Numbered from the stretch's first letter, positions 7,519 to 55,900 are shown. The stretch: DNA of 64,000 nucleotides from a virus (IMGVR_UViG_3300032236_001583:3926-67925), one strand, 5' to 3'. Notes: generated by a model not told the origin, from the sequence alone. Numbers and translations: made by a program.

Positions 7519-7519
7519 T

Positions 7520-8321: not shown

Positions 8322-8332
8322 CTTTTTAAATC

Positions 8333-8361: not shown

Positions 8362-8367
8362 TATATT

Positions 8368-9250: not shown

Positions 9251-9264
9251 TCTATTTATATCAT

Positions 9265-31011: not shown

Positions 31012-31041
31012 CCATTTTACTTATTTTTATATTTATATCAT

Positions 31042-31494
31042 ATGGCAGTAACATATGGTATAGATTTCCCGTTTAGGGATAGTTCAGAAGGTAAGTTTTT
31101 ACAAATGACGAGTAGTCCTGAAAAGGAGATTCGCGCAGACCTTATTCATTTGTTGTTAACAAAGAAAGGAAGTAGATATTTTTTACCTGACTTTGGAACA
31201 AGATTATATCAATATATCTTTGAGCCAAATGATGCAAACACTTTTGCTTTAATTGAAGGTGAAATTAGAGACGCAGTTTCCAAATACATTCCAAATTTAA
31301 CAATAACAACAATAGAAGTTATTTCAGCTGAAGATGATCCAAATCAAGCTTATTCTATTGCTGAAAATGAAGATAATAGACTTTTCAGAGTTTCTGACAT
31401 GTCAAACAAACCATATACAGCTGTGGTTAAAATAAGTTACACAGTTAACGCAGGTGCATTTAGCACATCTGATTTTATTATACTAAACATCTAA
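31042..31494 (+). CDS. Baseplate wedge protein (gp25/GpW-like)
   Basis: GI.FPF, I..DL..LLLT.KGSR...PDFGT.L...IFEP, I..AV.KY.P signature. Confidence 0.92.
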   Translation: MAVTYGIDFPFRDSSEGKFLQMTSSPEKEIRADLIHLLLTKKGSRYFLPDFGTRLYQYIFEPNDANTFALIEGEIRDAVSKYIPNLTITTIEVISAEDDPNQAYSIAENEDNRLFRVSDMSNKPYTAVVKISYTVNAGAFSTSDFIILNI

Positions 31495-31495
31495 T

Positions 31496-33328: not shown

Positions 33329-33380
33329 AAAGATTTTTAGTTATAATAGTAGAAAATTGGGTTTTTTCTATTTATAGTTA

Positions 33381-36300
33381 ATGGCACAGCAACACAGAAT
33401 TCGTAGAATTAATACAGAAGTTGGTAAAGACAAAAAGGTAACTGTTGAACTTAACCAGGACTTTGATTTAATGGAGATTTTATCCCTTAAATTTAGTCAA
33501 GTTCAAGCGTATACATCATTTTGTTCTGACTATGGTGTTGTATGTGGTAGAATATCCGTAAATAACGGTTTAGGTATACCAAATGCAAGAGTTTCCATAT
33601 TTGTACCATTAAAGGATAAGCACGTAGATGACCCCGTTATTTCGGCTTTATATCCTTATACACAGGTAACAGATAAAGATCAAAACAATTATCGTTACAA
33701 TTTACTTCCAGCTAGACAACAACATGGTGGTCATACACCAACTGGTACATTTCCAGATCAATTAGATATATTAAATAATGAGGCTATTTTAGAGGTTTAT
33801 GAAAATTATTATTCATTTACTGTTAAAACAAATAGCTCAGGTGACTTTATGATTTGGGGTGTTCCATTAGGTACTCAAACATTACATGTCGACGCTGATT
33901 TATCAGATATTGGTTGTTTTTCACTTAGACCTTATGATTTTATAAGACAAGGTAAGGGTGTAGATAGTTTCAAGAACAAATACACATTTAAGGCATCTGA
34001 AGATTTAAGTTCACTACCACAAATTGTATCGTTTGATAAAACCATTGAAGTTTATCCATTTTGGGGAAATGAAGATTTTTGTGAAATAGGAATTAGTAGA
34101 GCAGATTTTGATTTATCTGAAAAAGGGGTTAAAATACAACCAAAAGCATTTTTATTAGGTGGTGTTTTCACTGATGTAGAAAAAAATTCAGTTAATAAAA
34201 ATTGTACACCACGTCAAAAAATGGGACGTAAATGTGATATGAAAACTAAATCTGCAAAGATTGAAGCTTTACGTTACACACCACAAAAAGATACAAATAA
34301 TCGACCAATAATTGAAGAAGTTGATTTACATGAAGATGTTCCGGATGACGGTTCATTTGTTTTTCCTTTAGATATGAACATGGATTATCTTTTCACTAAT
34401 GAATTTGGTGAAAATGAAATTACAAATGATCCGAATAAAGGAGTCCCAACCTCAGCCTGTTATAGATTGAGGTTTAATATGAACGATAATGGATTGGATA
34501 GAGTAAGAGCTAATGCTGATTATTTGATTCCAAATATTAGAGAATATAATAATGATGGTGTAATTGATGATAGTTCTTATTATTTTGGTACTGAATGGAG
34601 TGGATACCCACAGAATGCTATAAGTTTAATGACCAATTTTAATAATAGTGAAGCTAGTTATGGTTATTATCCACAAGATTATTTTTATAGGTTCAATTAT
34701 AATAAAGTTTATACAGTTTCATCATTTCATAGTCATTTTATAGGTTCTAATGCCATTGGTACGGTAGGATTTGCAAATATTAATGAAGCACACCCTGCGG
34801 AAGAAGAAGATTGTGGTGATAAATTAACACCACCTACAAACTTTGGTAAAAAAAATTATACATTTACATTATTGATTGCAGATTTTTTATTGGCATTAGA
34901 TTTCGTTATTAAATTTTTAACATTACAATTTTTAAATTTTGTTGTTTTAATTTTGAATACGGTTATAGAAGTTCTGATAAGTGTGACCTCTGGAGGTCGA
35001 GGTTTGAGAGATAATTTGGATGAGTTTCAAATAAATAATACAACAAAATTAAGTTTAATTAATTATCCAGAATGTATCGAATGTTCAAGTGAAACTTCTA
35101 CTGTTGGCGGAGGAACAAACACTAATCAATTTTATACTGAGAGTGGATGTTCACTTTATGATTTATTATATGATGAAACTTTAGCTACAGGTTATTTTAT
35201 AACTGATAATACAAATACTAATCAATACACTGGTTGTAATACCTCAGACCATGGTTATGGTGGAGATATAGGGCCTTCTCGTTGGGTTCCGGCAAATATA
35301 GGGAGAAGATATGTACCTACCTTGGAAGGTCTTACTAATTATAATTTGATTTCAACAGCCATCTATGCGGATGGTACGCATAGATCTGCCGATCCTGTAA
35401 ATAAACAAAGCGGGGGAAATGCGAGTGATTTCGGTCCATTATCTACAGGAGTACGAGATATTGGTTGTCATGGTTGGGGTTACCAAGGTGGTCCTGTTAC
35501 TCCAAGTGGAAGAAGTGAATTTAGAAATGGTGTTTTTTATATAATACCTGGTACACAAACACCAGCTAAATTAACTGGTGTTTTATTTGAATGGTATAGA
35601 AGAAAACGTGTTGGTACTTTATTTTGTGGTGGAATTGTAAATTATGGATTCGTTGATAATTGGTTATCAGGTTCATTATATTTTCCACAATTAAAAATTA
35701 AAAAATTATCACGTGCAGTACAGGCAGGTGTCGATGGAATCGCTCATTATTGTAGAAATATTGCGCATCTTGTTATTGGTCAAGGTAAATTATATTATAG
35801 ATCAGCGTCATTTGACGGAACAAATTTCAATCCGAATAATCTAAATAGACCAACTACATTTGTTGATTTAGGTCCAAGAGACGAATTCATAAAAGAAATT
35901 TGTGTAGACCCAACACTAGATCCAAACTGTTCAGTTGCACGTTCTATTGGTCAAACTTCATATCACGATTTGGGTGAATTATTAGGTATGGCAATAAATT
36001 ATAGAATGGATATTGCAGGTGCAAATGGTAATATTGATATGTTTTTCCAAAATTCATCATTCTTCACGAATGAAGTGTTAGACGGAGACATTTTACAATT
36101 ACTTTCTATTAATAATGAAACAGGTATTGAAGGATTCGATTTAGAAAATCCAAAATATATTGGTTACCAATTCAATCATTTAGATCCAAAATTGAATCAA
36201 AATTTTTTCAAGGTTAATGGCGATTATGGTCCATTACCTGTAACGTTAGAATTAAATGAAGATGGATATAGAATCAGAACTTGTTTAAATGAAGGAACAC

Positions 36301-36983
36301 ATTATGATTTCAATACACCACCTAATTTAGTTGAAGGTAGATTAACAGAATCTTCACAACCAGTACCATTTTATCTTTGGGATAAAAAGGGTGAAGGATT
36401 TGGTAATTCAGGTTCCAATAAAAATAATCAAGGCTGGGATTATAGTACTGTTGAATTACAACCTTTACAAGGTATGACATATGGTTATAACATAAGTGGA
36501 ACTCCAAATAACGATAGTGATCAATATGCATTATTACCAATTACAAATACCAATAGTGGATTTACATTAGCTAATCTAAATTTAACAGATCAAGTTGAGT
36601 TTGAGACAATTTCTAATATTGATAAAACTTCTGATAGTAATTTTGAGTATCCTGGCTACACATATTTGTATGTTACTGGCGGTACAGTAAATGGTGTTAC
36701 TGGATTAATTAGTCCTAATGATAGTACACCATCAGGTGTTTTATATATTAGAGTTGGACCAAATAGTTATAATACAAGTAATGTTGTTAATGGTTGGCAA
36801 ACAATACAATGGAATAGTAATTTCGATATTATACTACCAGCGAGATATGATTACTATAATGGTAGTAAACAAATTCTTTCAACACCATTCCAATTTTATT
36901 TTGGACTGATAGCCGGCAAAACCGGGCTTGATAAATTTATTGACCTATTTGGTCCGAAGGGAGCGTTCCCACCAGTTGAATAA
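33381..36983 (+). CDS. Large virion structural protein with N-terminal carboxypeptidase-regulatory-like domain and internal hydrophobic segment
   Basis: GVVCGRI....G.GIPNARVSIF...TN.SGDFMI.GVP.G...L..D pattern; TATTTATA upstream; located in the baseplate cluster. Confidence 0.65.
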   Translation: MAQQHRIRRINTEVGKDKKVTVELNQDFDLMEILSLKFSQVQAYTSFCSDYGVVCGRISVNNGLGIPNARVSIFVPLKDKHVDDPVISALYPYTQVTDKDQNNYRYNLLPARQQHGGHTPTGTFPDQLDILNNEAILEVYENYYSFTVKTNSSGDFMIWGVPLGTQTLHVDADLSDIGCFSLRPYDFIRQGKGVDSFKNKYTFKASEDLSSLPQIVSFDKTIEVYPFWGNEDFCEIGISRADFDLSEKGVKIQPKAFLLGGVFTDVEKNSVNKNCTPRQKMGRKCDMKTKSAKIEALRYTPQKDTNNRPIIEEVDLHEDVPDDGSFVFPLDMNMDYLFTNEFGENEITNDPNKGVPTSACYRLRFNMNDNGLDRVRANADYLIPNIREYNNDGVIDDSSYYFGTEWSGYPQNAISLMTNFNNSEASYGYYPQDYFYRFNYNKVYTVSSFHSHFIGSNAIGTVGFANINEAHPAEEEDCGDKLTPPTNFGKKNYTFTLLIADFLLALDFVIKFLTLQFLNFVVLILNTVIEVLISVTSGGRGLRDNLDEFQINNTTKLSLINYPECIECSSETSTVGGGTNTNQFYTESGCSLYDLLYDETLATGYFITDNTNTNQYTGCNTSDHGYGGDIGPSRWVPANIGRRYVPTLEGLTNYNLISTAIYADGTHRSADPVNKQSGGNASDFGPLSTGVRDIGCHGWGYQGGPVTPSGRSEFRNGVFYIIPGTQTPAKLTGVLFEWYRRKRVGTLFCGGIVNYGFVDNWLSGSLYFPQLKIKKLSRAVQAGVDGIAHYCRNIAHLVIGQGKLYYRSASFDGTNFNPNNLNRPTTFVDLGPRDEFIKEICVDPTLDPNCSVARSIGQTSYHDLGELLGMAINYRMDIAGANGNIDMFFQNSSFFTNEVLDGDILQLLSINNETGIEGFDLENPKYIGYQFNHLDPKLNQNFFKVNGDYGPLPVTLELNEDGYRIRTCLNEGTHYDFNTPPNLVEGRLTESSQPVPFYLWDKKGEGFGNSGSNKNNQGWDYSTVELQPLQGMTYGYNISGTPNNDSDQYALLPITNTNSGFTLANLNLTDQVEFETISNIDKTSDSNFEYPGYTYLYVTGGTVNGVTGLISPNDSTPSGVLYIRVGPNSYNTSNVVNGWQTIQWNSNFDIILPARYDYYNGSKQILSTPFQFYFGLIAGKTGLDKFIDLFGPKGAFPPVE

Positions 36984-38737
36984 TGGAAGAGAATAAATCG
37001 ATAATATTACCAAGTAAAGAATACGCTAATGCAATATCTAAAGATCTTGATGTTAAATTAGAATTAGAATCTAGTCAAAATTTAATGCGTCTTGGTGATC
37101 GAGATATTGTATTAAATCTAAATGATTTATTTGGTTCTGAAAGAACACAAAGTATTGATTATAAAATATTTGGTAAACTAAAAATGATTTTTAGAAACAT
37201 GTACACTGGTGGTACATCTTTTAGTTATTTAGAGGAAAAATTATTTTTAATAGGTGATGGTAGTACAGGTTTTTTTGAGGGTTATCTTCCATATGATGAA
37301 TTTGCTTTTTTAAGAAGAGATGTTGTTAGACAAATTACAAGTTTTACAAATGTTAACGGTGTTTATACTGGAACAACTGTAACAACAGGTGATACTAGAT
37401 ATCAAACTGTTACACCTATTGAAGCTCCTTACCATAACTGGAATTTATATTTGACATATGCATATAGTGGTGACACTAATTACCCTATGACATACACATT
37501 AAGTGGCGGAACATATCAAAGCTTTGTAGCTTCTGATGGTATACCATTTAGAATATCTTTTACTGGTACAACATATTTGGAATTAACATCACCAGTTGAA
37601 CATGGTATGAATGCAGGTGAGTATGTATTTTTTTCAGGTATAACGACACCATTTTACATTAATTCTGTTGGTAACGAAATTTACAACTCAGAAAAATATG
37701 TTATTAATTTAGCATTAGCACAAATACCATCTGGGACGACATTTAATACTATTATGATTGGTAAAAGATGTTTAGACCTAAAAAATATTACAGGAAGTAC
37801 ATCACAATATTATGTTCACAGATTGAAGACATTAACTAGTGTTGATGATTATATTATGGATAATGTTGGATTTGAGACACCAGTATTTGTTGATGAAAAG
37901 AAAATCTTATTCCAAAATGCTGTGGGTACAAATGATGTGGTTGTTGAAAGAAATAGAATGGAATCTGTTTTATTTGATTTCAAGAAACCATTACAATTAA
38001 CTGGTTTTACCAATAATCTTGGATATACACCAACAGAAGTTTTTGTTAGTGTAATTTTTAGAAATGGTGCTGGTTATTTTGATTATCCACCAAAAGTTGG
38101 ATTTAAGTTTAATTTCCATGATAATTGGATTGATAATATTTTTACTGGTTCAACAGAAACAACATTATCAGGTACTACGTATACATTATCTGGAATAACA
38201 TTTACAAGTGGTAATACATTGCCAGTTGGTACAGAAGGATTAGTTGGTTCATTTATAGAATATAATCCACGAGAAATGAATGAAAGAATTGTGAGCGATG
38301 CATATCATAAAATCACAAATCCATTACCAATTTTCAATTACGGTCAAAATGGTAATGTTGATGGTTTTTCTGGTGCAACAAACTCAAATAGATTTGGATT
38401 ATATTATCAACCATATCATAAGGTAATGTTAAAACAATTATCACCATATGTTGAAAACTCTAAAACAGACAATCCACTTAATACTGATGTTGTAATTAAT
38501 ATGCCTGATAATGCAACTTTTGATCCAACTGAAAATGTATGGAGATGGAGAGATGTTTATGATGATGGTTATATCGACCCTGATGGTAATGGTACTAATT
38601 TTCCATTTATGAATGGTAATCATTATGTAAGATCAGATATTAACTTTTATTTAAGAAACGAAAGATATTATACAAATAAAAAAGATGGTGTTAGTGATTT
38701 CAATGCTAATGCTAAAAATAACCCAAGTGATTGTTAA
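36983..38737 (+). CDS. Virion structural protein of the baseplate region, rich in [ST]GxT
   Basis: 584-aa ORF coupled by TAATG within the late operon. Confidence 0.65.
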   Translation: MEENKSIILPSKEYANAISKDLDVKLELESSQNLMRLGDRDIVLNLNDLFGSERTQSIDYKIFGKLKMIFRNMYTGGTSFSYLEEKLFLIGDGSTGFFEGYLPYDEFAFLRRDVVRQITSFTNVNGVYTGTTVTTGDTRYQTVTPIEAPYHNWNLYLTYAYSGDTNYPMTYTLSGGTYQSFVASDGIPFRISFTGTTYLELTSPVEHGMNAGEYVFFSGITTPFYINSVGNEIYNSEKYVINLALAQIPSGTTFNTIMIGKRCLDLKNITGSTSQYYVHRLKTLTSVDDYIMDNVGFETPVFVDEKKILFQNAVGTNDVVVERNRMESVLFDFKKPLQLTGFTNNLGYTPTEVFVSVIFRNGAGYFDYPPKVGFKFNFHDNWIDNIFTGSTETTLSGTTYTLSGITFTSGNTLPVGTEGLVGSFIEYNPREMNERIVSDAYHKITNPLPIFNYGQNGNVDGFSGATNSNRFGLYYQPYHKVMLKQLSPYVENSKTDNPLNTDVVINMPDNATFDPTENVWRWRDVYDDGYIDPDGNGTNFPFMNGNHYVRSDINFYLRNERYYTNKKDGVSDFNANAKNNPSDC

Positions 38738-40849
38738 ATGATAGTAAGAAGACAAACAACAGATCAAAATTTAATCATTAATACGGAACTTGATTTCCAA
38801 ACTGACTTGGGTTGGGAAGATAATTTAATGCAATTCGAGGAAGAAATTCTAAATGAGATTATCAACCCAATTGAAAATTATGAAACAATTAGATATATAC
38901 ATTCGCCATATACGTTGAATGGTATATCACAAACAGATATTTGGTTTTATTTTTATTTTGCTTCTGGCGGAACATATAATCAAAGCTATGAATCAGTTAG
39001 TATATCAAATCAAGATAACGAACATTTATTACCACAATCAGTAAAAAGTTTTTTTAGATTAGAATTCTATAAAACACCAGGAATTGTAACAAATAATGTT
39101 TTAACATGTGAACCACCAACAAGACAAAATAGAAGATTGGTATTTGCTAAAAATTTATCATTACCAAATGGTGAAAAAGTATTTGATTCAGTTCTTAATG
39201 GACATTTACATATTCCAATATTCACAGGATCAAACTATAGAAATAAAGAAAACATGTATATGTTTTGGTTTGAGGATGAATCTGTTTTAACTGAAACTAA
39301 TTTAAGTGGTAGTACAACTGGGAATACATTCTTTATGACAGCTAAATTCTATGATGCTGAAAATGGTAATATATTAGATTTTACAAATGATTGTTTTGAT
39401 ACTAGTCATACAGTTAATGAACCAAAAGATATGTATTATCAAGTTGATATTGATAAAGTAAATCACACATATACAATATCATATTATGATGGAGTTGTTG
39501 AATGCGAACGTGTTGGTACATCACAATTACCAATTAGATTTTTTGAAAAAGGTGGAGCAACATGCCCACCATCATTACCATATCATATTTGTAGTGATGT
39601 TACCCCAACACCAACATTAACTCCAACTCAAACAGTTACCCCAACTGTCACTCCAACAAATACACCAACACCTACCCCAACACAAACATCAGGTGGTGGT
39701 TCAGGTGGTGGTTCAGGTGGTGGTTCAGGTGGATCGGGAGGTACATATTACTGGTATGAATTAACTAGTTGTAATGATGGAATAACAAAAATAGTTGGTA
39801 GAAGTTCACAGTCAATTGATCAGTCACCTATTGTGTATAAAATAAATCAATATGATTGTTACAATCTTACTGGTGACGAAGTTGAAACATCATCTTTTTA
39901 TGATTTAGATCAATATGATTCAACTAATACTTGTTCAGATACGTATTGTATAGCACCAACACATTATACTGTTTGGCGAGATTGTTTAAATAATTATTGG
40001 TATTATCAAGGTGATTATAGTTCTAGAACAACAGGTATTTCATCTGAAATAAATGTTGATAATAATTGTTTATTTTATGTTGATTACTCAACGTCAACAT
40101 ATGGTGGTACTCAATTATCAACGCCACCGATAGCTGGTGATTGCATGTGCTCAACGCCACAAATGTTTAGTGACACAGTACATATTAAAAACAGCTCATC
40201 TGATTTTAGTTGTGGTAACTGTGCGGATGTTGCTTCGTTTATTGCAAATGGAAATGCTGAAACATTCTGTTCTTGTACAACATTTACTGGTTCTGGATTC
40301 TCAGGATTGGCAAATGGAACTTACGTTATGTCAAATATTGCATCAAATGCGTATTTCTCAATAACAGTTACATCGGGTTCTGTTACAATAAATGGTTCTT
40401 GTGTTGAACCAATACCATCACCAACATATTATGAATATAGTTTAGGTTCTGGTAGCACAATCGCATTAGCATGCCCTGCTTCAAGAACCATAAGATATTC
40501 AGGTGCTAATTTGTTGGGTTTATATGATAAATTATATACAACAAGTGATTTAAATCCTAGTAATGAAGTTGCAACTGGAGTTTACAGCGATGGTATTTCA
40601 GCGTACACGTACAATCATGGAACTGGTATAGCTGACTGGTCAGGTTGTAATTTAGATTGTGAATCGTGGAATATTGTTAATAACGATATGAAATATCAAA
40701 TACCTATTACTGTTACTTACACTGATTGTAGTAACCAAATACAAACAATTAATTTACCATATGGTGATATGAATATTTGCATAAAAGCTGGTACAACTAT
40801 TTCAGGACCGTCAAGTAGTAGCTTTAATAATTCATATTGTTCTTCATAA
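38738..40849 (+). CDS. Virion protein with Thr-Pro linker, Gly-Ser linker and Cys-rich C-terminal domains
   Basis: Globular N-terminal region, TPTPT tract (39600-39690), SGGG repeat, and many paired Cys. Confidence 0.7.
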   Translation: MIVRRQTTDQNLIINTELDFQTDLGWEDNLMQFEEEILNEIINPIENYETIRYIHSPYTLNGISQTDIWFYFYFASGGTYNQSYESVSISNQDNEHLLPQSVKSFFRLEFYKTPGIVTNNVLTCEPPTRQNRRLVFAKNLSLPNGEKVFDSVLNGHLHIPIFTGSNYRNKENMYMFWFEDESVLTETNLSGSTTGNTFFMTAKFYDAENGNILDFTNDCFDTSHTVNEPKDMYYQVDIDKVNHTYTISYYDGVVECERVGTSQLPIRFFEKGGATCPPSLPYHICSDVTPTPTLTPTQTVTPTVTPTNTPTPTPTQTSGGGSGGGSGGGSGGSGGTYYWYELTSCNDGITKIVGRSSQSIDQSPIVYKINQYDCYNLTGDEVETSSFYDLDQYDSTNTCSDTYCIAPTHYTVWRDCLNNYWYYQGDYSSRTTGISSEINVDNNCLFYVDYSTSTYGGTQLSTPPIAGDCMCSTPQMFSDTVHIKNSSSDFSCGNCADVASFIANGNAETFCSCTTFTGSGFSGLANGTYVMSNIASNAYFSITVTSGSVTINGSCVEPIPSPTYYEYSLGSGSTIALACPASRTIRYSGANLLGLYDKLYTTSDLNPSNEVATGVYSDGISAYTYNHGTGIADWSGCNLDCESWNIVNNDMKYQIPITVTYTDCSNQIQTINLPYGDMNICIKAGTTISGPSSSSFNNSYCSS

Positions 40850-40890
40850 CAATTAATATAATAAAAAGAAAAAGAAGTTATTTATAATAG

Positions 40891-43800
40891 GTGAAAAGGA
40901 CAAAATATACCATAAGAAGAGATACTATCGTCACAGGTTCGTTAATCGATACCACAACACATTCGTGGTTAGATGGTGATGGTAATATAGTACCTTGGGT
41001 ATCTGGTTCCGTAGATATGTCACCTGCAACTGGTAGTGTTTTATATAATGTAAACACTTCAGGTAGTTTAGTTGAAGGATATTACAAATATAATGGTAAT
41101 ATTTGGTCACATGTTTCATCCAGCGTTGATTTATATCAAGACATTAATTTACCTATTTTATTAACTGCAACTGCAGATGAGTCAGGTCCAATGGTTGACT
41201 TTGATGGTGATATACAACACAACTACATTACCGCAAATTTCATGTATGAAATTAATGGTACAACTGTCACAGTATTTAATACCACAACTCATCAAGTTCA
41301 AGATGTAATTAATGCAAATCCATCATTATTGAATGATGTTGTGTTTACAATTAATTGGGGCGATGGTACAACAGATACGATTGGTAGATATGGTACCGCA
41401 ACACATACATATAGTGAGATAGTTAATCAAAGGGTTTCAATAACAATGAATTCACCATACATTGCAAATACTGTTGATAAAGTAATTGCAATTGAAGGAT
41501 TCTCTACGCCAACTCCAACTCCAACTATAACACCTACACCAGCAGCAACATCGGAACCAACTCCAACACCAACAAACACATCAACACCAACAGTAACACC
41601 AACTGTTACACCAACAAATACAAACACACCTACACATACTGCTACACCAACTGTAACACCAACAAATACGCCAACATCAACAGCTACTGTTACACCAACG
41701 GCAACTGTAACCCCAACAAACACGGCTACAGTAACACCGACAAACACAAATACACCAACAAATACACCAACTGTTACACCAACAAATACCGCAACACAAA
41801 CTGTAACACCAACCAATACAGTCACACCAACAACAACACCTACACCAACTATCCAATGTTATTTTGGTATAGATGTATCTGTATTGGCACCAACTCCGAC
41901 ACCAACTACAACTGTAACACCAACAGCGACTGTAACACCAAGTATAACACCAACAAATACCAATACACCAACTGTAACACCAACTCAAACACCTACGCCA
42001 ACTATTCTTTGTTACTTTGGAATTAATGTAAGTGTTCTTGCACCTTCACCGACTCCAACAACAACAACAACACCAACAAACACCGCAACGCCAACTGTAA
42101 CACCAACAAATACGAATACACCAACTGTAACGGCTACGAATACTGCGACACCAACAGTTACACCAACTCAAACACCAACACCAACTATCCAATGTTATTT
42201 TGGTGTAGATGTATCGGTATTGGCTCCAACACCAACTGCAACTCCAACAATGACTGTTACACAAACACCTACAATGACAGTCACACCAACGAATACTGCT
42301 ACACCAACAAATACTGCCACACCTACAATGACTGTAACACCAACAAATACGGTTACACCAACAACAACAGTTACGCCAACTAATACTGTAACTCCGACAA
42401 TGACTGTTACACCAACAGCAACAAATACTCCAACACCAACAATATTGTGTTATTTTGGTATCAATGTGTCAGTATTAGCACCAAGTCCAACACCAACTAA
42501 CACGCCAACACCGACGAATACTGCTACACCAACAAATACAGCAACACCAACGAATACTGTAACAGCAACACCAACAAATACGGTTACACCAACTAATACT
42601 GTAACTCCAACACCTACAGTTACACCAACAGTAACTGTTACACCTACGAATACTGCGACAGCAACGAGTACACCGACTCCAACACCAACAGTTTCTTCTG
42701 GTTATTGTGGTGATTGTACTTCATATGATATTGTTATAACATCGCAAGATTTGGCTGCAAGTCAAGATGGTAAAGTTTATGTTTATTATTACCCTTGTGG
42801 AACATATACAGGTGATATGGATTATTTAATATTTGCTAACCCAGGAACATATAACAATTATATATGTGCACAAAATTGTGCTAGCCAATCACCATATATT
42901 TGTGTGACAACAAATGAAGGATGTAATATTGCAAGTGGAGGATCAACATTACTTCCTTTAAGCGGTAACTGCGCAATTTCATATAATGCAGCGACAACAG
43001 TTACATGTAGTGATTCAACAGATTACACATTCACAATAGAAAGACCAGGATATACACATATTAATACTAAGTTTGATTTAGGTCAAACATATGGTAATGT
43101 TCAGGTAATAATAAGTGGTTTATCATATAATTCATATAATGAAATATTTGTTGGTAACTACGCAGAAAAAATAGGTAACACATACACATCAAATGCGGGT
43201 AATATTACAATAAATGGCTCAAATGGTATCGTAGGTTTCTATAGTTCAGACGGTAAAACAACTGTAGACGTTGTTGTATATTCAACAGGCACAAACGGTA
43301 TTTTCATACCATATGATATAAATGTAACTGTTGGTTGTCCTACTACTTTAGATTGTGGTACCAATTTACCAGTACAAACATATGTGACAGGAACTCAAAT
43401 TAATATAACCGATACTGGATATATTAAGTATGATACTGAATCTAGTACAATTTACAGATTTGTTTCTTCAACTGGAATGCATAGAATAGATGATTGTTTC
43501 ATATATGAATCATTAGAACCAGGTGTTCCTTATACTGATACCGCAGCATTCACAATACTATACAGTGGTAATACATGTAACACTGGAACTGATGATTGTC
43601 TAGAAATTACATTTGTTTCTAATAATACTTCAGATGTTAGAGTTGGATGGACAAGCTGTGTTGGTTCTTGGAGAACTAGAATATTAACACCTGGTGAAAT
43701 ATTTACAACTTGTGGTATTAAAAATAGTGGATATGTGGTTGATAGTTCAGATAATGTTTCAATTTCACAAGGAGCAGGTTGTAGTGGTACAATAACACCA

Positions 43801-44085
43801 GCAGATATATATTACAATGACGCAAACGCTGAATATCATTTAAATGCGTGGTTTACAAATGTTAAAGATAATAACAACATTTGTCTTGGTTACCCAATCA
43901 GCTTCTACTATGTACCAGGATTAAATTTATTTGATCCACCAAGATACATATTCCAGGATGCTAATGGTACAACACCATTCCCATACAATTACGTTGCAAT
44001 CTCATCATTTGGATTTGTATATGGATATGAATATAATAAAACAACTGGTGAAGTTGGATTACAAACATACACATGTTTAAATTAA
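40891..44085 (+). CDS. Fibre/adhesin-like protein: PKD-like domain, about 400-aa (Thr-X)n stalk, Cys-rich head
   Basis: INWGDGT....THTY PKD motif; GTG start supported by TATTTATA at -12; four CYFG(I/V)(N/D)VSVLAP motifs. Confidence 0.8.
41505..42690 (+). repeat. Thr-X dipeptide (mucin-like) coding repeat with 4 conserved 14-aa motifs
   Basis: ACN-NNN hexamer periodicity; motifs start at 41851, 42004, 42187 and 42442. Confidence 0.92.
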
Positions 44086-44092
44086 TTGAAAA

Positions 44093-44380
44093 ATGAGTAC
44101 ACCCATATTAATACCGCAAACAAGTCAAAATTTTGGTAAAGTAAATAAAATTATTTGGTTCAATGTTTCAGATGTTGATGGTACTTTTAGTCTCAATTTG
44201 CACATTACACCAAGCCAAGTTGCCAACACCACAATTTCAATATTTAATCAAGGAAATAAAATTGAGGTTTTCAATAGAACATACATAAAGTCCTCAAATA
44301 ATGATATTATTAATGAGACAGTAAAAATTAGACACACCCCTGGTCTAGATTCAAATATATATGGGATAAAAACCATTTAA
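44093..44380 (+). CDS. Small beta-rich hypothetical protein (possible fibre accessory or chaperone)
   Basis: 95-aa ORF between the two stalk-protein genes. Confidence 0.6.
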   Translation: MSTPILIPQTSQNFGKVNKIIWFNVSDVDGTFSLNLHITPSQVANTTISIFNQGNKIEVFNRTYIKSSNNDIINETVKIRHTPGLDSNIYGIKTI

Positions 44381-44395
44381 AAGTAATTATAGTTA

Positions 44396-47300
44396 ATGAG
44401 TAGTTCGTTTGACATTAGTTGTACAGTTCAAGGCGCAGCGCCAGACAATTTAGCCCATGAATGTGGTCTTACTAAGACGCTTTCGTGGACAGGTAACGGC
44501 ACTCATTCCGGATTATCATTTTATTTAATTCACACCCAATTAAACAATCTTACACCAAGGTACGTTTTTAAAAACCCAAAGTCTTCTAAATTAATTAAAT
44601 TTATATTTTCATCCAATTCATCTGTTAACGCAAAAGTAAGGGTAAAATATAATATTGATGGTGTTTTAACCGTTAGGGATGAATATGACCTTTCAGCATT
44701 AACAACAAATGTTGCAAAATACCATGAGTTATTAATTGATAATGACATTAAGTCTAATGCATTTATAATTTTAGATGTAATAACTAGTGACAATAATGCA
44801 GGTACAATTAGTGTAAATTTAGATTGCGATCCTCAAATTGTGTCAGCAAATTTCTGTTATGGATACACAAATTCATCACAGTATTGTTCGGAATGTCCAC
44901 AAACAATTACATTATATAGAGAAAAAAGTTCTAATAGTAATATAAGTGGTTTAATAAATGTAAACGTTGACAATTTTTCACCATATAGTGATGGTCCATG
45001 GTATAATGATGCTGATCTTCAAGTTGAGGCGGACGATACTATTTTTTATACATACAAAGTTAGTGATAACAATAAAAGAAGCTATTATTCGTATAGTAAA
45101 ACAACACACAAATTTAATTTAGAAGGTAGCTGTTTAGGTGGTAAGTATACATGCGGAAGTGACACTATTTCACAAACAAACTTAGTTTCTGATTATACAC
45201 AAACAAATCCATATTTACCAAATACTCCAAACGTAAAATTAAACGGATTAATATATTCTATTAAAGAATTTATTTTTGAGTTACCAACTAAAAATAGAAT
45301 TGTTCCAATTACAGTAACAACATCTGGAACTAAAAGAGATTTTGCATATATTATTACTGACGCAGTTAATGGTGATAGAGTTGGTAATGTTAGTTATGGT
45401 AATAGTTATAACGATCCATATTATAATGCTTGTACTGAGCTGAATTTATTTAGAAATCAAACACAACAATATTTCACAACAAATAGTGGTTACATAAGAG
45501 TTAGAATTGCGATCGGACAAAATAAAGGATTTAATGGTTCAGCTGTAACATGTTCTGTTAATGTTGGTTGTGGTCAGGAAATATATGGTTATGAAATGGG
45601 TGTTCATCCATATTCACCATATGATGCAAAAAATAACCCAAGAGTTGTGACCACATTATGGTCTACAACACCAATAGCATCATGGTCGGGATCAACATTA
45701 AGTAGTACTAATCCAAATGATAATCCATATGTCACAAATGGTACATATGTATTCAATGATGGAATATTAACTAATAGAGCTTTACCTTGGTATTATGCGA
45801 CATATAATACGTCAATTAATCAAAACATATATCAAATAGGTAACGCTGTTAATAGATCATATGGTATTAAAATAGACAAACAACTTACAAAACATGGAAT
45901 TTTTGGTAGCACAAATGTGAGTGATATTATTAGTGGACCAAAAGACTGGACAAATGTTGTTCATAATGTACCATATGTTCCAGCATGTATTGAACCAGCA
46001 ATTGTTGGCGTTGGTGTTGTAAATAAAATTTTAACAAGTGCTGATATTAAAAAACCATCAGCATATTCGTACCTATTAGGTATGGGTACAATAGGAGCAC
46101 CACCACCATTCCAAATTTCAGCAAATGATGGATTTTTCACGTTTTACAATTTCAATGATTCAACAAATACACCAATAACTGGTTTTGAGCATTTAGCGGA
46201 TAAAATGGGTATTGCATATGGTAGAGCAACAAATAACCCAACATACATTAAAGCAATACAAGACGGTCTTGGTAGAAGTATTGCGTTAGGCGGATCAGCT
46301 GCTGCCACATTTACATTAGTTTCAATTTGGGGAACGGAAGTTGCAAATGATTTTGCTTGGTTAGTTGCGACTATATCATTTTGGGCTATCGCAGTTGTTG
46401 CGCTTGTAGCAACTATTTGGGCTATATTTTCAACATCATCTAGAACTTTAATACAAAATTGTAAACAATTTTATAAAAAATATACTGGTGAAAATTCACC
46501 GTACATGGCAACGGGAGTTACAATATATGACGATGTTAATTTGTCAAAATATACAGCAGACAGAAATTATTGTGATGGTGCATATTATTATACGGTACCT
46601 TCTAATACAACTGATGGTAAAATTACTAATAAGCAATTAGCATATAAAACAATTAACAATGTTAAAACGTATACGTTAAACATCTTTAATTCAACAGATG
46701 GATCACAAGAATATATTACTGATTTTTCCAAACTATTCTTTTTAGCATATGTTGCCGGTTACCCTGAAAAATACACAACACAACCAACTGAATATACTAA
46801 TGATTCAACATCAGTAACAATATTACAAAGTAGTACTATAACAGGTGAATTAAATAATCCAGTTCCAATTACATATCAAATACCTGCTGGTACATTTACA
46901 TCAACAGATTCTGTAAATGATGCCAATGCTGAAGCATTAAAGTATTTAATAACTTTAACTGGGTCTACTTACGATAATGTTTTTTCAACAGAACCAAAAC
47001 CTGGTATTGAAACTGTAAATTTAATTTTTACACATGAAATTAAAGTTGAAAACGAACCAAATCTATTTTTAACATATTATAACAATAATGATACAAATGG
47101 TATAACTATTGGTAAAAAAATCTATTATGATATAAATGGTGATAGTTCAGTTTTAGATGGCTATTATTCCGAAATTATTGGCGGATCATATAGAAAATTT
47201 TATAAAACATCTGGTGGTACTGTAGTTGATATTATAATATGGCAAAATAGTTCTGACACAACTGCAACTGGTTCTTTAGGTACATACAGTGTAAGTACAA

Positions 47301-50300
47301 GTAATCAAGATTACACAAGTGTATGGTATATAACTGATTACAATTTGAGTGATATTGGTTTAAGTTTATATAATAATTTAGATAATTTAATAAATGATTG
47401 GAATACATCAACATTTTACAGTAATAGTAAAATAAGAAGAGGTTTTATACAAACTAGAGAAACTGCAGAAACTTTATATCTTTATGATAGTAATGAAAAT
47501 TTAGATTCATATACTGAAGGTATTGAAAATATTTATCGAGAAATTTATCCATTTGATTCATTACCTTTTACATATCATAAAGCACATACGTTAACAATTG
47601 TACCATACGAAGTTTGTGATCTAGATTTAGTTCAAAATGGTATTAATTTCAATATATACGATGCTAACGGTAATCCATCACCATCATTTGTTGGCGTAAC
47701 ATTTAGCGTAGACGTTTATACTTATAATACTTTTTTATCAACGTACACAATAACAATAGGTCCACACGATAATTCATATTTTTTAGAATTAGATATTCCA
47801 TATACTGGGCATACAGTTACTGATGTTAATAACTTTACGTATATATCACCAAACCCATATAACAAAACAACATTTACTAATGGTACGTTAGTACAAAATA
47901 ATGGTGTTTCACCTTGTGATTTTTACATTAACACAAATTATATTGTGGATTCATTTGGATATGTTCAATATGATAGTTTTGATGTCGATACTCACAATGT
48001 AACAACTATAATTAATAATTTAACTGAAGGTATATATAGCATTTCTACACCAATTGTTTATGGCTCATTAATGCCAGTAATTGACACTAACACATATTAT
48101 CCAGCAGCAAATATTAGAATTATTGAAACTGGAGATTGTTATGTTGAGGTTTCATTAACACCAACACCAACTCAAACAAATACTGCGACTCCAACAGTAA
48201 CACCTACTAACACACCAACACAAACTGTTACGCCAACTAATACTAACACTCCAACACCAACAAATACACCAACACCAACAATATTGTGTTATTTTGGTAT
48301 TAATGTGTCTGTATTAGCTCCAAGCCCAACACCGACAATGACTGTCACACCAACAGCAACTGTTACACCAAGTATAACACCAACAAATACTATTACACCT
48401 ACAATAACACCAACAAATACACCAACACCAACAATATTGTGTTATTTTGGTATTAACGTATCGGTATTAGCACCAACCCCAACACCAACTATTACGTCAA
48501 CACCAACAATGACGATGACTCCAACAAATACGTCAACACCAACTAACACACCAACAATAACAGCAACCCCAACATCAACTGTTACTCCAACCCCAACACA
48601 TACACCAACACCAACAATATTATGTTATTTTGGTATTAACGTATCGGTATTGGCCCCAAGCCCAACTCCAACAAATACAATAACACCAACACCAACACAT
48701 ACGCCAACTAACACACCGACAAACACGTTTACACCAACCATTACACCAACACATACGCCAACATCAACACAAACACAAACACCAACCAACACACCGACAA
48801 ACACGTCAACACCAACACATACACCAACACCAACACCATCATTACCGGCGTTAAGTGTTTCAGTTTCAAGTTCGTCAATACAATCTTGTTTCAATGTCAA
48901 TGATGCTTCATTTACATTAAGTGCGAGTGGTGGTAATGGTGCACCATATGAATATTCTATAGATGCTACTAACTGGCAAGCAAGTGCAACATTTAGTTCT
49001 TTAGCTGGAACATCATATACGGGTTATGTTAGAAATAATAATAGAACAGGAACAATAGCTTCAGTATCTGTTGGTAGTTTAAGTAGAAGTGCACCAAGCG
49101 TAAGCATATTCAAATCTAGTTATAATGGTTACAATATTTCATGTAACGGCGGTACAGACTCAATTGTAGTATCTGGATTTACAGGCGGACAGGGTGCACC
49201 ATATTCAGTTAAATTAAATTCTGGTGGAACGTATCAAACAACAACTACATCTAGAACATACAGTGGTTTAGCGGCTGGAACATATAATGTTTATGTTAAA
49301 GATTCTGTTGGTTGTGAAAATATAATATCAGTAACATTAACACAACCATCGGCTGTTAGTGCGTCTATTTCAAGTAGTACACAACCAACATGTTATAATG
49401 GATCTAATGGTTCGGTTACTGCAACAGCTTCAGGTGGTGTTGGTGGATATACATATTCATTAAATGGCGGATCATACCAAGCAAGTGCCACATTTAGTAG
49501 TTTACCAAATGGTTCATATTATATAACAGCTAAAGATGCTAATGGTTGTACCGCAACATCATCAACAACGACATTTGCAGTTACTGCTCCTAATGCAACA
49601 ATTACACCACAAAGTGTTAGCTGTAACGGTGGATCTGATGGTGCAATAGTAGTTATAGGAGGTTCAGGTGGTTCAGGATCTGGATATAGTGTATCTATTG
49701 ATGGATCAAGTTATTATACGATATCTGCAACTCAACAAAAAACATTTGGTTCATTAAATGTTGCAGGTAATCCATATACAATTTATGTTCGAGACGGATC
49801 TAATTGTATACAAGCATACAGTGTAAATGTGACGCAACCAGCTGTAAATACTGCATCAATATCAATTGTTAGTTATGATACCGGTACTAGCAATGGTCAG
49901 TTAAATTTAACATCAACCGGCGGTACATGGCCTAAAACTTATAGATTATATAAAGATTCAACAACACCATATAATGACTTTACAGCTAGTAGTTTAGTTG
50001 CAACATTTACAGGTGTAACATCAAGTTCACCAACAGTTACCGCAACTGGTTTATCATATGGTTATTATTGGTTAACATTAACAGATGCAAATGGTTGTGT
50101 GGCACAAAGTGCAACAGAAACTGCATTATTAAATTACACATATGTTGGTAATTATAGATCTGCAGCTACAGTAGCTTGTGGAGATACAACATCCCCATTA
50201 TATAATGTTTATTTAAGTAATTTTGATTATTCAACATATACGTCTAATGCTAATTCATTAACATCTGGTATGACAATATACTCAACAAACTCAGGTGGTT

Positions 50301-50395
50301 TATGGAGTGGTGGAGCACAATTATATGATCCAAATAGTGGTAGCGTATTTAAAGTATCAAGTACTGGTCTACTTAGCTCATATCAAAACTGTTAA
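44396..50395 (+). CDS. Giant adhesin-like virion protein: hydrophobic hairpin, DUF5977-like motif, (Thr-X)n stalk, SprB-like repeats
   Basis: SC.GG..G.I.V...GG...YS..L.G.......F..L..G.Y.V.V.D..GC repeats (SprB-type); [17 protein letters not shown] motif; three [14 protein letters not shown] motifs. Confidence 0.8.
48158..48840 (+). repeat. Thr-X coding repeat with 3 conserved 14-aa motifs
   Basis: Motifs start at 48281, 48434 and 48617. Confidence 0.92.
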
Positions 50396-52058: not shown

Positions 52059-52982
52059 ATGGCAGTAGGAGCATATGGTATAACAAGACCGGCAGACGTC
52101 TCACCAGCAGATGTAGAAATTTTCTATCATTATGTTTCTGGTAGAACTGCTGATATTGTACCAACATTTAAGAAATTGGACCCAGTTTCAGTTTTAACAC
52201 CGGTTTATCATACTGGTACAACAACCTCTGATACATCGGCAATAGGTGCTGAAGTTTTGGGTGGTTTATATAATTTGAAATTGGCATCAACAGATTTTAG
52301 TAATTTGGGAATATATACATTAATGCTGCGTCCAAAACAAATCAGAACTTCAATTACTGATTGTGGTGTATTAGCTTCAATGCCATCAGTTAGGGGTTTA
52401 GTTATTGATTTAGGTAATATTGCTGCGGAAGATAGAGCAAAATTCATTCCTCAAGGATTAGTTGGTTATAGAATTGAATATGTGAATACAGATGGGTCAA
52501 ACAAAAAAATGGCTAACTTTTACAGACTAGTAACATCGTCATTTTATTGTACCCCAGTTGTTAGTAATTTAAGCGACACAACAAATAAGTCAATTAGATA
52601 TCAATATAGTGATGCAACAACCAACTTTGTGTTTTTAACTTTAACGCCAAGTTCTGCACCATCATCAAGACCAAATGTGATTCCATATATTGGAGTTCCA
52701 GGACAAAAAATTATTTTATCAAACACATATTTCAATCCAACAACAATTGAAATTGAAATGGTTGAACATGATGCTACAACATTGTCATATGCACTTTATG
52801 GTAACCAATCTAAAGCGGTTGCTCCAGGTGTATACACAATTTATGATAGTAATAACAACATTTACAAGCAATACAACTTATACGAAATTAAAGATCAATA
52901 TAATGATACATTGTATGAGATTCGCGAACAAAAAACAATAATTGACGACACCTTGAATTTCACTAATATCACTAACGTATAA
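52059..52982 (+). CDS. Hypothetical virion (baseplate-region) protein
   Basis: TATTTATA at 52038; 307-aa ORF coupled to the next gene by TAATG. Confidence 0.65.
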   Translation: MAVGAYGITRPADVSPADVEIFYHYVSGRTADIVPTFKKLDPVSVLTPVYHTGTTTSDTSAIGAEVLGGLYNLKLASTDFSNLGIYTLMLRPKQIRTSITDCGVLASMPSVRGLVIDLGNIAAEDRAKFIPQGLVGYRIEYVNTDGSNKKMANFYRLVTSSFYCTPVVSNLSDTTNKSIRYQYSDATTNFVFLTLTPSSAPSSRPNVIPYIGVPGQKIILSNTYFNPTTIEIEMVEHDATTLSYALYGNQSKAVAPGVYTIYDSNNNIYKQYNLYEIKDQYNDTLYEIREQKTIIDDTLNFTNITNV

Positions 52983-55900
52983 TGGGGACAATAACTGGTA
53001 ATACTTCTAATGTAAGATATAAAATCCCTAGCAAAGCGGCTAGTGGAGCACAGACTTTTGCTGATAATTTAGTGGGGGTGCAAATTACTGATGGTACCAG
53101 TCAATTAACAAATACTAATTTTGCGTTAGATAAATTTTATCCAGAAAAGGATAGTAAGGATTTCAAGACATCACCATTCTCTAATTTTTTTGTTTTAGAC
53201 GATCTTAAAATTGAAACTTCTGCACCAACAACAACAAGTGGTACAAAACCAAAAGATGAAAAAATAAGATTTAAGGGTGGTATTGATGACGCAAGTAAAG
53301 CATTATTTGGTTCATTAGCTGCTAGAATATCAGTTTCTATTGGTAATATTATAACAGCATTCCCTGCCGGAATTTATTTGGATTCATCAACAGCTACTGC
53401 AACAACACCATATACGGCGAGCGGTATAACATATGATGAGATATTGAAAATCACAACATTATATGTTGAGACTAACATGTTTTACAATCCATTTGATATT
53501 GTTTATGTCGCACCTAACAGTAACACATTACCAGCAACATCAAACGCATTAAGAAATCTATTTTCAGCATATAAAAATTATGTAATTGATTTCAACGGAA
53601 GCACCTATAATGTTTTAACGTTTTCACAACCTGATGCTAATAATAATATAAAAATCACAGTTGAAGGAAAACCATTTACTGGTACAACAGAAACTGATAA
53701 TTTTATTATTAGACCAACTAATTCAATTGTCGAAGAGTTTTTCAACAATTTAGATGACTTAGAAAATTTATTATTAACTAGAGATTCTAATCCAAAATAT
53801 CAAGCTAGCTTTAAGGTTCCGACAGAAAGTTTGGATCAAAGTAAAATTGAAATATCAACATACACAGTTAACTGGCCAATATCAAAAGACGGATGGAATA
53901 TTGAAATTGTTGGTTTAAGTTTTGATCAGTACATTTATCAACTATCTAGTTTAGCAAATGAAATTGATGATTATAAATCTAATTTAATTGTTAGATTTTT
54001 AACAGCACCTCAATTATTTGAGTTTGATACTGATGATCAAAAAGCACAAGCAATATTCCAAATATACGGACAATCATTTGATAGTGTAAAAAAATATATT
54101 GACAATGTGGCATTTATGAGAAATGTTACATATGATGGTATTGACAACGTACCAGATGTTTTACTTAAAAATTTATCACAAACATTAGGATTAGATACAC
54201 ATAGTTTATTTGATGAAACATCATTAGACGATACATTATATACAAGACAAGATAACACATTTAGTGGTTTAACACAAGGTATGACTTTGGTTGAAGCTGA
54301 GTATGAATTTTACAGAAGATTACTTGTGAACTTAGCACATATATTTAAGTCAAAAGGTACTAGAAACGCATTAGATTTTCTTTTAAGATTTTTAGGTGCA
54401 CCAGAGCCATTAATTAAAATTGAGGAATTTGTTTATGATGTAACAAGTTTACCAGTTAATCAAAATGTTGAAGATGATATTCAAGATTTGATTAGCGGAA
54501 CAAAAACAGAATATGTTATTACTGGTACAACAATAGACCATTCTGATTACACATATTATTATGATGGTGTACCATTATCACATTCAAGTTATCCATATAC
54601 TGGTATCACATATCAAATGGCGACATTAACTGGGTCAACAAATCTTAATAGAGATGAATATCCAATTGATGAAAATGGATTCCCTAGAAAAATATTTAAT
54701 GCTACTGATGATATCTTTTTCCAAAAAGGTGCTGGTTGGTATGAATTAACAACTGAACATAGATCTCCAGATATTATTGACACACAAAAATCAATATTGA
54801 CAGGTAAAACAAAAACAATTATAACTAAACCAAAACCATTTACATATGGTGAGGATTACTTTAATTATTTAAGAAAATTACCAGGATTAAATTATGGATT
54901 TGGATTGAAGCCTAGAATTGATAATATTAAATCTAGTGTATTCACCGACGAAAATTCTGAAAAGTTAATTCTTAATAGAAAAAACGCAAACGTATTTTTA
55001 TCACCATCACAAGCGATAGAATATGATATTTGGAGAAAAAATACAACAGGTGATACACTTAATGATTATTATAGTAATATACTTGATAGTATTGTTTTAA
55101 ATTCTGCAACATCAAAATATGATAAATCATATAGTGGGTTAACAAGTTTTTACAATTCTTATTTGACAAATACTGGATATACACCATATGATTTTATTTC
55201 AGTGAATAATTTTGTTAATAAGTTAGGTCCATCTTGGGTTAGAATCATAGAACAATTTATTCCAGCAACAACATTATGGTTAGGTGGTAATTTGATTAGT
55301 AATACGGTTTTCAATAGATCAAAATATGCTTATAAAAATTTAAGATACGGTATACCAAACAATCATAGTTCAATTGTATCATATGACGATGATGAATTTA
55401 ACTGTTCTAATCCAATACCAGAAACACCATTACCAACACATACACCAACTCGTACTCCAACAGCAACGCCAACGCCAACTGTAACACCAAGTCATACAGC
55501 ATTACCAACACATACACCAACTACAACATCAACACCAGCAACGACTCCGAGTCACACACCAACGCATACACCAACACCAACAACAACACTTGTTACTTCA
55601 CCAACACCAACACAGACTCAAACACAAACGCCAACACCATCATCAACAACACCATCTGTTTCAGTATGTTATACTGTAACATCAGGTGTTATGCCAGTAA
55701 CCGGTGGTTCAGGTGCGCAGGCACAGGGTACAATAACAGTATCTAACGGTACTGTTAATATTTGGACAAAATATAATTCAGCTGGTAGTAGTTCAGGAAC
55801 AGCACAATGGAGTGGAACATTTAATAGTATTCCAGCCTCTGGAACATTTACTATAATGAATTTGGGTGAATCACAATACACAACTAGTGGTGGTAGTGGA

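Follow-up and report, generated by a model that had tools for sequence, protein, structure and literature searches.

The stretch of DNA analysed here, referred to as the window, is 64,000 nucleotides (nt) in length and represents bases 3926–67925 of the 67,925-base virus record IMGVR_UViG_3300032236_001583. It contains two large genes on the plus strand whose proteins have Thr-X stalks interrupted by copies of the same Cys-containing peptide. Gene 1 (positions 40891–44085) has a GTG start and encodes 1064 amino acids (aa), with an N-terminal anchor domain, a stalk with four copies of the peptide and an all-beta C-terminal domain. Gene 2 (positions 44396–50395) encodes 1999 aa and has a 1250-aa N-terminal region, a stalk with three copies, and repeats of the SprB type. 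The peptide is a 14-mer, I[LQ]CYFG[IV][ND]VSVLAP, each copy of which is termed an island. In gene 1 the islands are at positions 41851–41892 (g1a, aa 321), 42004–42045 (g1b, aa 372), 42187–42228 (g1c, aa 433) and 42442–42483 (g1d, aa 518). In gene 2 they are at 48281–48322 (g2a, aa 1296), 48434–48475 (g2b, aa 1347) and 48617–48658 (g2c, aa 1408). All seven are exactly where an earlier note on this DNA had placed them. The conserved unit is really about 24 aa and reads TPTPT-island-[ST]PT. Elsewhere in the six frames, CYFG occurs just once in the window, at an unrelated minus-strand site around position 686.

The islands are spaced by 153, 183 and 255 nt in gene 1 and by 153 and 183 nt in gene 2, which leaves linkers of 37, 47 and 71 aa and of 37 and 47 aa, respectively. 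The 37- and 47-aa linkers common to both proteins, to which the earlier note drew attention, are thus confirmed; the fourth copy in gene 1, at a spacing of 85 aa, has no counterpart in gene 2. A comparison of the copies at 42004 and 42442 shows that 14 of 42 nt differ, in 10 codons, and all of these changes are synonymous. The codons of g1b are the most divergent among the copies, and its Ser codon is AGT where all others are TCN; g1d differs from the gene 2 copies by 3–7 nt. Over the 21 copy pairs there are 0–3 non-synonymous and 2–10 synonymous codon differences. The constraint acts on the island peptide and not on the DNA, as the note had also concluded from the synonymous changes. A DNA- or RNA-level role of the repeat was considered and is ruled out by the synonymous variation between copies.

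The equal spacing of the first two islands is accompanied by sequence similarity. Positions 41824–42123 of gene 1, which comprise an island, the 37-aa linker and the next island, match positions 48254–48553 of gene 2 on the same strand with 75% nt identity over 300 nt and no gap. The two 37-aa linkers are identical in 32 of 37 residues, a value reached by none of 282 null windows, with 81% nt identity and 57% identity at third positions. Since 13 of the 32 identical residues use different codons, the paralogy of this first unit is judged to be old and not recent. The block is not a recent duplication of high identity, a case that would have counted against the earlier note. A 37-aa linker of similar sequence is also found in gene-2 orthologues (L063, L012, L021, P0032 (37, 37); L019, P0034 (37)), and L062 has a linker of 47. 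Because the 37-aa unit is standard in the gene-2 orthologues, the block in gene 1 looks like a copy from a gene-2-type stalk.

The 47-aa linkers are different. As stated in the note, they have diverged and are equal in length (33 of 47 residues, 65% nt and 34% third-position identity). A match of 33/47 is no better than that of other Thr-X stretches of both genes; 3 of 192 null windows reach 33. Linker lengths in this family are quantised in steps of about 10 aa. Of the 39 non-zero differences between adjacent spacings in proteins with long linkers, 27 are whole multiples of 10 aa; in the set as a whole, 31 of 78 even differences are (binomial p 5e-5 for a null proportion of 0.2, with rows that are not phylogenetically independent). 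Periods of 30 nt are present in the stalk DNA of the window. With such quantisation and such periods, the second match between the two genes (37 + 10 = 47 aa) is therefore unremarkable. An explanation of the 10-aa steps by strand length was dropped; parallel stacking would predict steps of about 20 aa. The shared 153/183-nt spacing, judged from these alignments, would be largely a matter of inheritance and not of a register code between the two proteins.

The 14-mer is a local variant of a widespread motif, here called the CxF island, of a lineage of uncultured T4-like phages. The CxF island has the pattern of an amphipathic strand, about 11 residues long, in which a single Cys is invariant; it is located in Thr-Pro stalks and is always framed by T-P-T-P-T. 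Positions +4, +6, +8 and +9 are hydrophobic, and positions +1, +3, +5 and +7 are polar or acidic. This alternation has the signature of a single amphipathic beta-strand, of which one face would be hydrophobic (Cys, Phe, Val/Ile, Val/Leu, Val) and the other variable and polar. Many relatives, among them L038, L043 and L054 with their tight repeats, have islands whose exposed face is strongly acidic (C-x-F-D-V-D-V-D-V); stacked strands of this kind would form Asp ladders, which might need divalent cations.

A scan of viral contigs with gene-2 orthologues gave 75 loci, and 42 open reading frames (ORFs) with at least 2 generalised C-x-F islands are present among the 2335 ORFs of 76 related loci. 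With identical stalks removed, and proteins and the window added, the set consists of 46 non-identical stalks. These have 2–22 copies at spacings of 20–172 aa (median 41), and 56 of the 202 spacings are exactly 23 aa. A Cys-independent survey of stalk islands that are not Thr-Pro sequence gave 548: 342 CxF, 12 CxLGG, 21 with another single-Cys sequence (these include DFCxDI and LCDVI), and 173 without Cys, most of which are no more than Thr-X stretches poor in Pro. A single Cys is present in each hydrophobic island class of these stalks. The CxLGG islands represent a second class, P[IV]HCELGGxATYIPP or PL[FY]CELGGxA. In the stalks of P0001, P0003 and P0004 this class stands ahead of the CxF islands; in P0001 its spacing rises through 22, 26, 36 and 46 aa.

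A profile made from 21 island copies (A1) was run against 1,835,955,588 representative proteins and matched 13 at E≤1e-3; on reading, 8 of them were judged true stalk proteins and the other 5 unrelated repeats. The N-terminal domain of gene 1 has 25 homologues at E≤1e-3 in a search restricted to proteins of 585–1862 aa, and 11 of these have related islands, e.g., I[QE]C[FY]FGIDVNVV, SIDCSFG[IV]D, NCDF[ND][VI]N and TINCSFGIS. In P0005–P0007 and P0010 the stalks merely join globular repeats of about 170 aa. A cluster look-up for 7 homologues yielded no informative names.

Two regularities are found across these stalks. Motif variants are genome-specific and shared between genes, with identities of 0.59–0.91 between genes within a genome and 0.24–0.65 between genomes; island pairs from two genes of one genome have 3–6 synonymous codon differences per pair. 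This pattern would fit repeat turnover together with transfer of stalk modules, and also a common partner or hetero-assembly. In addition, linkers lengthen from the N- to the C-terminus (64 increasing and 25 decreasing steps, binomial p 4e-5); in proteins with at least 4 copies Kendall's tau for linker length is positive in 23 of 30 and negative in 2, and in both counts the rows are not independent. A full-text literature search, judged from its result lists alone, returned nothing on such phage stalks. The earlier note knew of no described phage fibre of this build and the search found none either; the motif family and its spacing regularities appear to be undescribed.

The exact back-translated motif pattern was matched by one other viral contig, G001, with 0 matches in genome_contigs and 0 in metagenome_contigs. 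The matching gene, on the minus strand in locus L010 (G001:C1:8000-27900; ORF 3048–9731 of the reverse complement), encodes a single protein of 2228 aa that consists of a gene-1 N-domain (53% identity), a stalk with 14 copies, and a SprB C-terminus of the gene-2 type (51–52% identity). The copies read [IV]QC[FY]FGI[DN]VSVLAP and are spaced by 41, 51, 51, 51, 65, 75, 75, 55, 95, 95, 99, 109 and 119 aa. P0001 likewise combines these three parts in a single gene, and both fusions skip the gene-1 C-domain, ORF95 (the small gene between genes 1 and 2) and the gene-2 N-terminus. The G001 record (79,750 bases, 26% complete) has no match to the gene-2 N-terminus. Because these two genes fuse a gene-1 N-domain with a gene-2-type C-terminus, the low-complexity stalk seems to represent a recombination joint for the swapping of modules.

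The earlier note proposed that islands at equal spacing clamp the two proteins together in register, and that linker lengths should then co-vary between the two genes in relatives. The comparison was made in ten loci with a full-length gene-2 orthologue, one per distinct sequence (L012, L013, L016, L019, L020, L021, L023, L050, L062 and L063); duplicates (L014, L015, L017, L018, L024–L026 and L052) and the truncated L022 were left out. The gene-2 orthologue has 2–5 CxF islands in nine of the ten, and that of L050 has none. In the same nine loci CxF islands are present only in the gene-2 orthologue. CxF islands in a Thr-Pro context are absent from the genes of these loci that have a gene-1 N- or C-domain; a different Cys island is found in gene-1-type genes, in two copies in a partial ORF of L012 and in one copy in L020. 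The gene-1 orthologue of L019, which has both the N-domain and the C-domain (1072 aa), has a Thr-Pro stalk of about 330 aa without an island.

Five other genomes have two island-bearing genes (L031, L034, which is the same sequence as L036, L035, L042 and L045). The motif variant and the basic period are common to both genes in these genomes, but copy number and the placement of long linkers differ: for example, spacings are 55/85/55 in one gene and 99 in the other in L031, and 23x6/45/23 and 23x4/61/23 in L034. Copy number and spacing differ from gene to gene and from genome to genome, which is largely the outcome that the note itself had named as a refutation of its clamp. What stands of the in-register idea is that genes of one genome share a motif variant and a basic period; a register code is not supported.

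The note also suggested that ORF95 might dock on the motif. ORF95 (positions 44093–44380, plus strand) is a small conserved gene that in relatives is always located between the gene with a gene-1 C-domain and gene 2, with 35–64% identity. It is present in all 5 records with a gene-2 orthologue; one of these is L050, in which the orthologue is island-free. It is absent (E≤0.1) from all 5 motif-bearing records that have no close gene-2 orthologue, one of which is 97% complete at 323,865 bases. By this distribution ORF95 tracks gene 2 and the gene-1 C-domain independently of the motif, which speaks against the docking proposal. It matches no Pfam or PHROG family, and might serve gene 2 in assembly or as an adaptor.

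Structure modeling was done with a relative that has tight repeats. The AlphaFold2 (AF2) model of the L035 protein, which has 9 islands at a 23-aa period, was made from a 4-sequence alignment and has a mean predicted local distance difference test (pLDDT) value of 39.6, with 54–71 in the repeats. Each island is modeled as one 11-residue strand. Comparison of the repeat region with known structures gave curli CsgA (8c50_A; Z 16.7, root-mean-square deviation (rmsd) 9.0, 212 residues aligned), 4dn7_B (Z 14.4, rmsd 3.6) and tailspike beta-helices (Z 11–12.5); repeats often reach such Z values, and Z below about 13 is common for them. A complex prediction with three copies of a 30-aa island segment (alignment A1) gave an ipSAE of 0.03 against a mark of 0.42, which counts neither for nor against association. 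The beta-strand role that the note gave to the islands is compatible with the low-confidence monomer model of L035. The minimum spacing of 20–23 aa would fit a strand of about 11 residues followed by an extended Pro/Thr return of about 12.

In the explanation that we favor, and to which we give an even chance of being right, the islands would act as beta-strand rungs that associate with one another and so bundle a floppy stalk, with the Cys as a possible lock and with a spacing that is inherited. Island strands of the same chain, of other chains of the same fibre oligomer, or of both, would zip into a small beta-sheet or a solenoid-like core. The zipped islands would bundle the otherwise floppy Pro/Thr spacer at discrete nodes, and the single Cys of each island would be so located that the node can be locked upon release into oxidising water. 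The unit of island, 37 aa and island would have been copied between genes by recombination within the low-complexity stalk DNA. Strand pairing, the bundling of oligomers and the Cys lock are what we infer, and the structural support for them comes from a single low-confidence model of a relative.

Several observations weigh against this explanation. The L035 model is a low-confidence monomer of a distant relative with tight repeats, and a monomer pairs strands only within the chain. The linkers in the window are 37–71 aa, so that stacking would cost much loop entropy. The long stalk of the L019 gene-1 orthologue is island-free, so islands are dispensable there. The cytoplasm in which assembly occurs is reducing, and odd copy numbers are frequent, so that a simple pairwise disulfide scheme is not evident. 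Genome-specific variants shared between genes would also be predicted by a common partner or by hetero-assembly, and the N-to-C lengthening of the linkers is not accounted for. As to spacing, the 37-aa length is kept across gene-2 orthologues with only 36–71% N-terminal identity; spacing within a protein may be selected, and pure inheritance does not explain that.

Of the other explanations, a hetero-fibre in which islands of genes 1 and 2 pair in register through the equal 37- and 47-aa linkers is very unlikely. It would account for the 51- and 61-aa spacing in both genes, for an identical peptide kept in both despite 3–14 synonymous nt differences, and for the two genes that share the genome's own motif variant in 6 genomes. 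The occurrence of islands in gene 2 only in nine of ten loci, with none in the L019 gene-1 orthologue, is difficult to reconcile with it, as are the differences in copy number and spacing pattern between the two island-bearing genes of the five other genomes. The single fused 14-copy gene of G001, a 26%-complete record with no match to the gene-2 N-terminus, the unmatched fourth copy (85 aa) of gene 1, and the paralogy that explains the first unit also argue against it. Shared genome-specific variants would also be expected if one common partner docked on the islands, for instance a decoration protein, a chaperone of assembly or some further protein of the baseplate, with a groove that co-evolves with the variant. 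The strong conservation of the peptide, with an outward face that varies between genomes, is in accord with such a partner. However, the obvious candidate, ORF95, does not track the motif, no other candidate was identified, and up to 22 sites per chain would demand many partner copies; we regard a common partner as improbable.

A third explanation centers on the Cys itself, as a chemical site that the strand just presents. For example, Cys from three chains might coordinate a metal, or the Cys might bear a thioether or another modification, or form a disulfide transiently during folding. One Cys in every hydrophobic island class (CxF 342, CxLGG 12, and 21 others), a His-Cys-Glu grouping in the second island class of P0001, and the unusually Cys-rich composition of the distal proteins are in its favor. 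On the other side, conservation within the CxF class (a class that is defined by C and F) is as high for Phe at +2 and for the hydrophobic alternation as for the Cys, P0003 and P0004 have Phe or Tyr in place of the CxLGG His, and no modifying enzyme was recognised among the window genes scanned. Its chance of being correct is small, and similar to that of a common partner. That the islands are functionless relics, spread by tandem duplication of stalk DNA, is the least credible and can be given hardly any weight. The stalk DNA is indeed a hierarchical tandem repeat, and copy number and spacing vary widely. However, two of the copies differ by 10 synonymous and 0 non-synonymous codons, the island type is conserved across gene-2 orthologues at 36–71% identity, and only 13 proteins in 1.84 billion match the profile, so the island is not a generic product of Thr-Pro repeats. 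Glycosylation was also considered, as Bacteroidota-type O-glycosylation or at an N-X-S sequon, and was dropped; many copies have Asp in place of Asn, and a glycosyltransferase was not recognised.

If the self-associating rungs are taken one step further, they suggest a new kind of fibre shaft. In this shaft, single Cys-bearing strand rungs would be placed on Pro/Thr spacers in steps of about 10 residues, short near the baseplate and long near the tip. The rungs would be genome-specific and common to different fibre genes. At the nodes, chains that may come from different proteins would zip together and lock, which would give the shaft a graded stiffness. This larger proposal is tentative, and we consider it more probably wrong than right.

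The remaining features of gene 1 are as follows. The N-terminal domain (aa 1–215, positions 40891–41535) is common to a family of stalked proteins, and in related loci too it comes after a gene of the type found at 38738. It has no sequence match in the Protein Data Bank (PDB) better than E 0.077. The end of the domain (positions 41290–41535, aa ~130–215) matches part of the Deinococcus PKD-domain proteins P0008 and P0025 (query coverage 32–37%) and is probably a PKD/Ig-like module that adjoins the anchor. The Thr-X/Thr-Pro stalk (aa 204–603, positions 41500–42699) has Thr-Pro-rich segments and hierarchical tandem repeats of 6–54 nt in addition to the 153-nt period. In the ESM Atlas, aa 300–560 match only unnamed viral clusters with scores of 0.81–0.87, which is under the reliability level. 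The C-terminal domain (positions 42691–44085) is Cys-rich and predicted to be all-beta; its AF2 model (11 sequences, mean pLDDT 63.2) is mostly strands and has no Foldseek match in the PDB at E≤1e-3 (best 8.3e-3). Orthologues of this domain adjoin ORF95 in relatives. Gene 1 has no Pfam family, and aa 527–795 match phrog_15511 (E 4.3e-18), which has no annotated function.

Gene 2 has orthologues with 36–71% identity in the N-terminal region. Its Thr-X stalk (aa 1252–1486, positions 48149–48853) is defined by a Thr-Pro-rich segment and by tandem-repeat scans, and aa 1251–1296, in the stalk only, also match phrog_15511 (E 9.9e-5). The C-terminal region (positions 48836–50395) belongs to the SprB repeat family of adhesins (PF13573; E 6.1e-11, 42.2 bits against a cut-off of 28, in 2 stretches). 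DUF5977 (PF19404) at aa 820–859 scores 24.3 bits, below its cut-off of 25, and is not assigned. Positions 46349–46445 (aa ~652–683) encode a strongly hydrophobic, transmembrane-like stretch with Kyte-Doolittle 19-mer means of up to 2.45, which is odd in a fibre protein; it is located in the region aligned with the orthologues P0032 and P0034.

The record, on gene content, is that of a T4-like phage with a contractile tail, as sheath, tube, gp25 and gp6-type wedge genes are all present. The sheath gene matches phrog_23 (E 2.9e-64) in the PHROG scan, and its protein is 31% identical to that of Microcystis phage Mel-JY01 and also matches T4-like cyanophages. A Pfam scan of the window proteins recognised gp19 tube, T4_baseplate, gp25 and gp32 genes. 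The baseplate/fibre module opens with a gp25-like gene (positions 31042–31494, plus strand; Pfam GPW_gp25, E 1.2e-13), followed by a gp6-like baseplate wedge gene (positions 31496–33328, plus strand; PHROG phrog_219, E 7.4e-24). Genes 1 and 2 are downstream of these in one co-oriented block whose order is kept in relatives, and thus have the location used to recognise tail fibre or receptor-binding proteins. Position and architecture point to genes 1 and 2 as encoding baseplate-distal fibre or adhesin proteins. Cultured phage records have no match to gene 1 or to the gene 2 N-terminus (tblastn), nor to positions 30000–50000 (megablast). The host is probably in the Bacteroidota, because all 19 bacterial loci with relatives of the gene 2 C-terminus have Bacteroidota titles.

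Thr-Pro-rich segments are confined to four genes of this module: genes 1 and 2 and those that begin at 38738 and 52982. The gene at 38738–40849, upstream of gene 1, encodes 703 aa with a short Thr-Pro stalk (aa 286–321) followed by a Gly-Ser run (SGGGSGGGSGGGSGGSGG). In relatives the N-domain is conserved and the C-termini are variable; neither this N-domain nor the region at 36983–38737 has a PDB sequence match better than E 0.077. There are 24 Cys in this protein, 23 in that of gene 1 and 30 in that of gene 2, compared with 1 in the sheath. The protein encoded at 52982–56053 (1023 aa) has a Thr-Pro-rich segment at aa 810–893 without islands, and no Pfam or PHROG family. Two very large ORFs (positions 11348–16180 and 16496–22357; 1610 and 1953 aa), with no Pfam match, are located between the tail and replication genes.

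If the islands are chain-zipping rungs, they would provide a simple modular route to long, flexible receptor-binding fibres that requires just a low-complexity spacer and one strand of about 11 residues. The reach and stiffness of the fibre could then be set through copy number and spacing, and the low-complexity stalk would serve as a recombination site that swaps anchor and receptor-binding modules, as in G001 and P0001. The motif would aid the annotation of large proteins now labelled "hypothetical", of which there are many in uncultured T4-like phages with probable hosts among aquatic Bacteroidota. The graded and quantised linker lengths represent a concrete, testable regularity.

Among known systems, bacterial glycoside hydrolases and surface proteins have Pro/Thr linkers between globular modules. 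The (Thr-Pro)n low-complexity spacer between modules is similar, as in P0005–P0007; we know of no conserved Cys-strand islands in such linkers. The gene 2 C-terminus resembles the SprB repeat adhesins of Bacteroidota, with 26–40% identity to relatives in the 19 bacterial loci. None of these loci has a CxF island in a Thr-Pro context; with the 0 matches in genome_contigs, the stalk is therefore regarded as the phage's own. A further analogy, and only that, is with the hinges of IgG3 and IgA1 and with gel-forming mucins that have CysD between Pro/Thr/Ser regions, where Pro/Thr spacers with Cys elements tie chains together. The likeness is an extended Pro/Thr spacer punctuated by Cys-bearing elements. 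However, those are eukaryotic secreted glycoproteins, in which CysD has about 100 residues and many Cys and the hinges have motifs of the CPxCP type; unlike these, the phage islands have one Cys in a hydrophobic strand of a protein that is made in the cytoplasm.

In beta-solenoids, such as curli CsgA and the parallel beta-helix tailspikes, the likeness is that the low-confidence L035 model stacks one strand per repeat (Z 11–16.7), and curli repeats are similar in length to the 23-aa island repeats. The island return segment is Pro/Thr-rich and is not a strand, the 37–71-aa linkers of the window are far beyond a solenoid turn, and sequence identity of the matched structures to the L035 region is 2–12%. 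The other comparison is with repeat-built viral shafts. In the triple beta-spiral of adenovirus fibre and reovirus sigma1, and in T4 gp12, gp34 and gp37, contiguous short strand repeats build the shaft of a receptor-binding fibre, and cysteines or metal sites aid the folding of some phage fibres and spikes. No sequence similarity to these shafts was found, in a Pfam scan that gave no family on the stalk and in PDB sequence searches with the gene 1 N-domain and two upstream neighbours. The window islands, which are 37, 47 and 71 aa apart, are not the tandem repeats of about 15–20 residues by which a triple beta-spiral or contiguous-repeat shaft is recognised. The CxF stalks have in common with these shafts the short repeated strand motifs with conserved hydrophobic positions. 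The shafts are contiguous, whereas in the CxF stalks single strands of 11–14 residues are separated by 9–105 residues of Thr-Pro spacer. If the proposed rungs are correct, this would add a shaft type beside coiled coils, triple beta-helices and beta-spirals.

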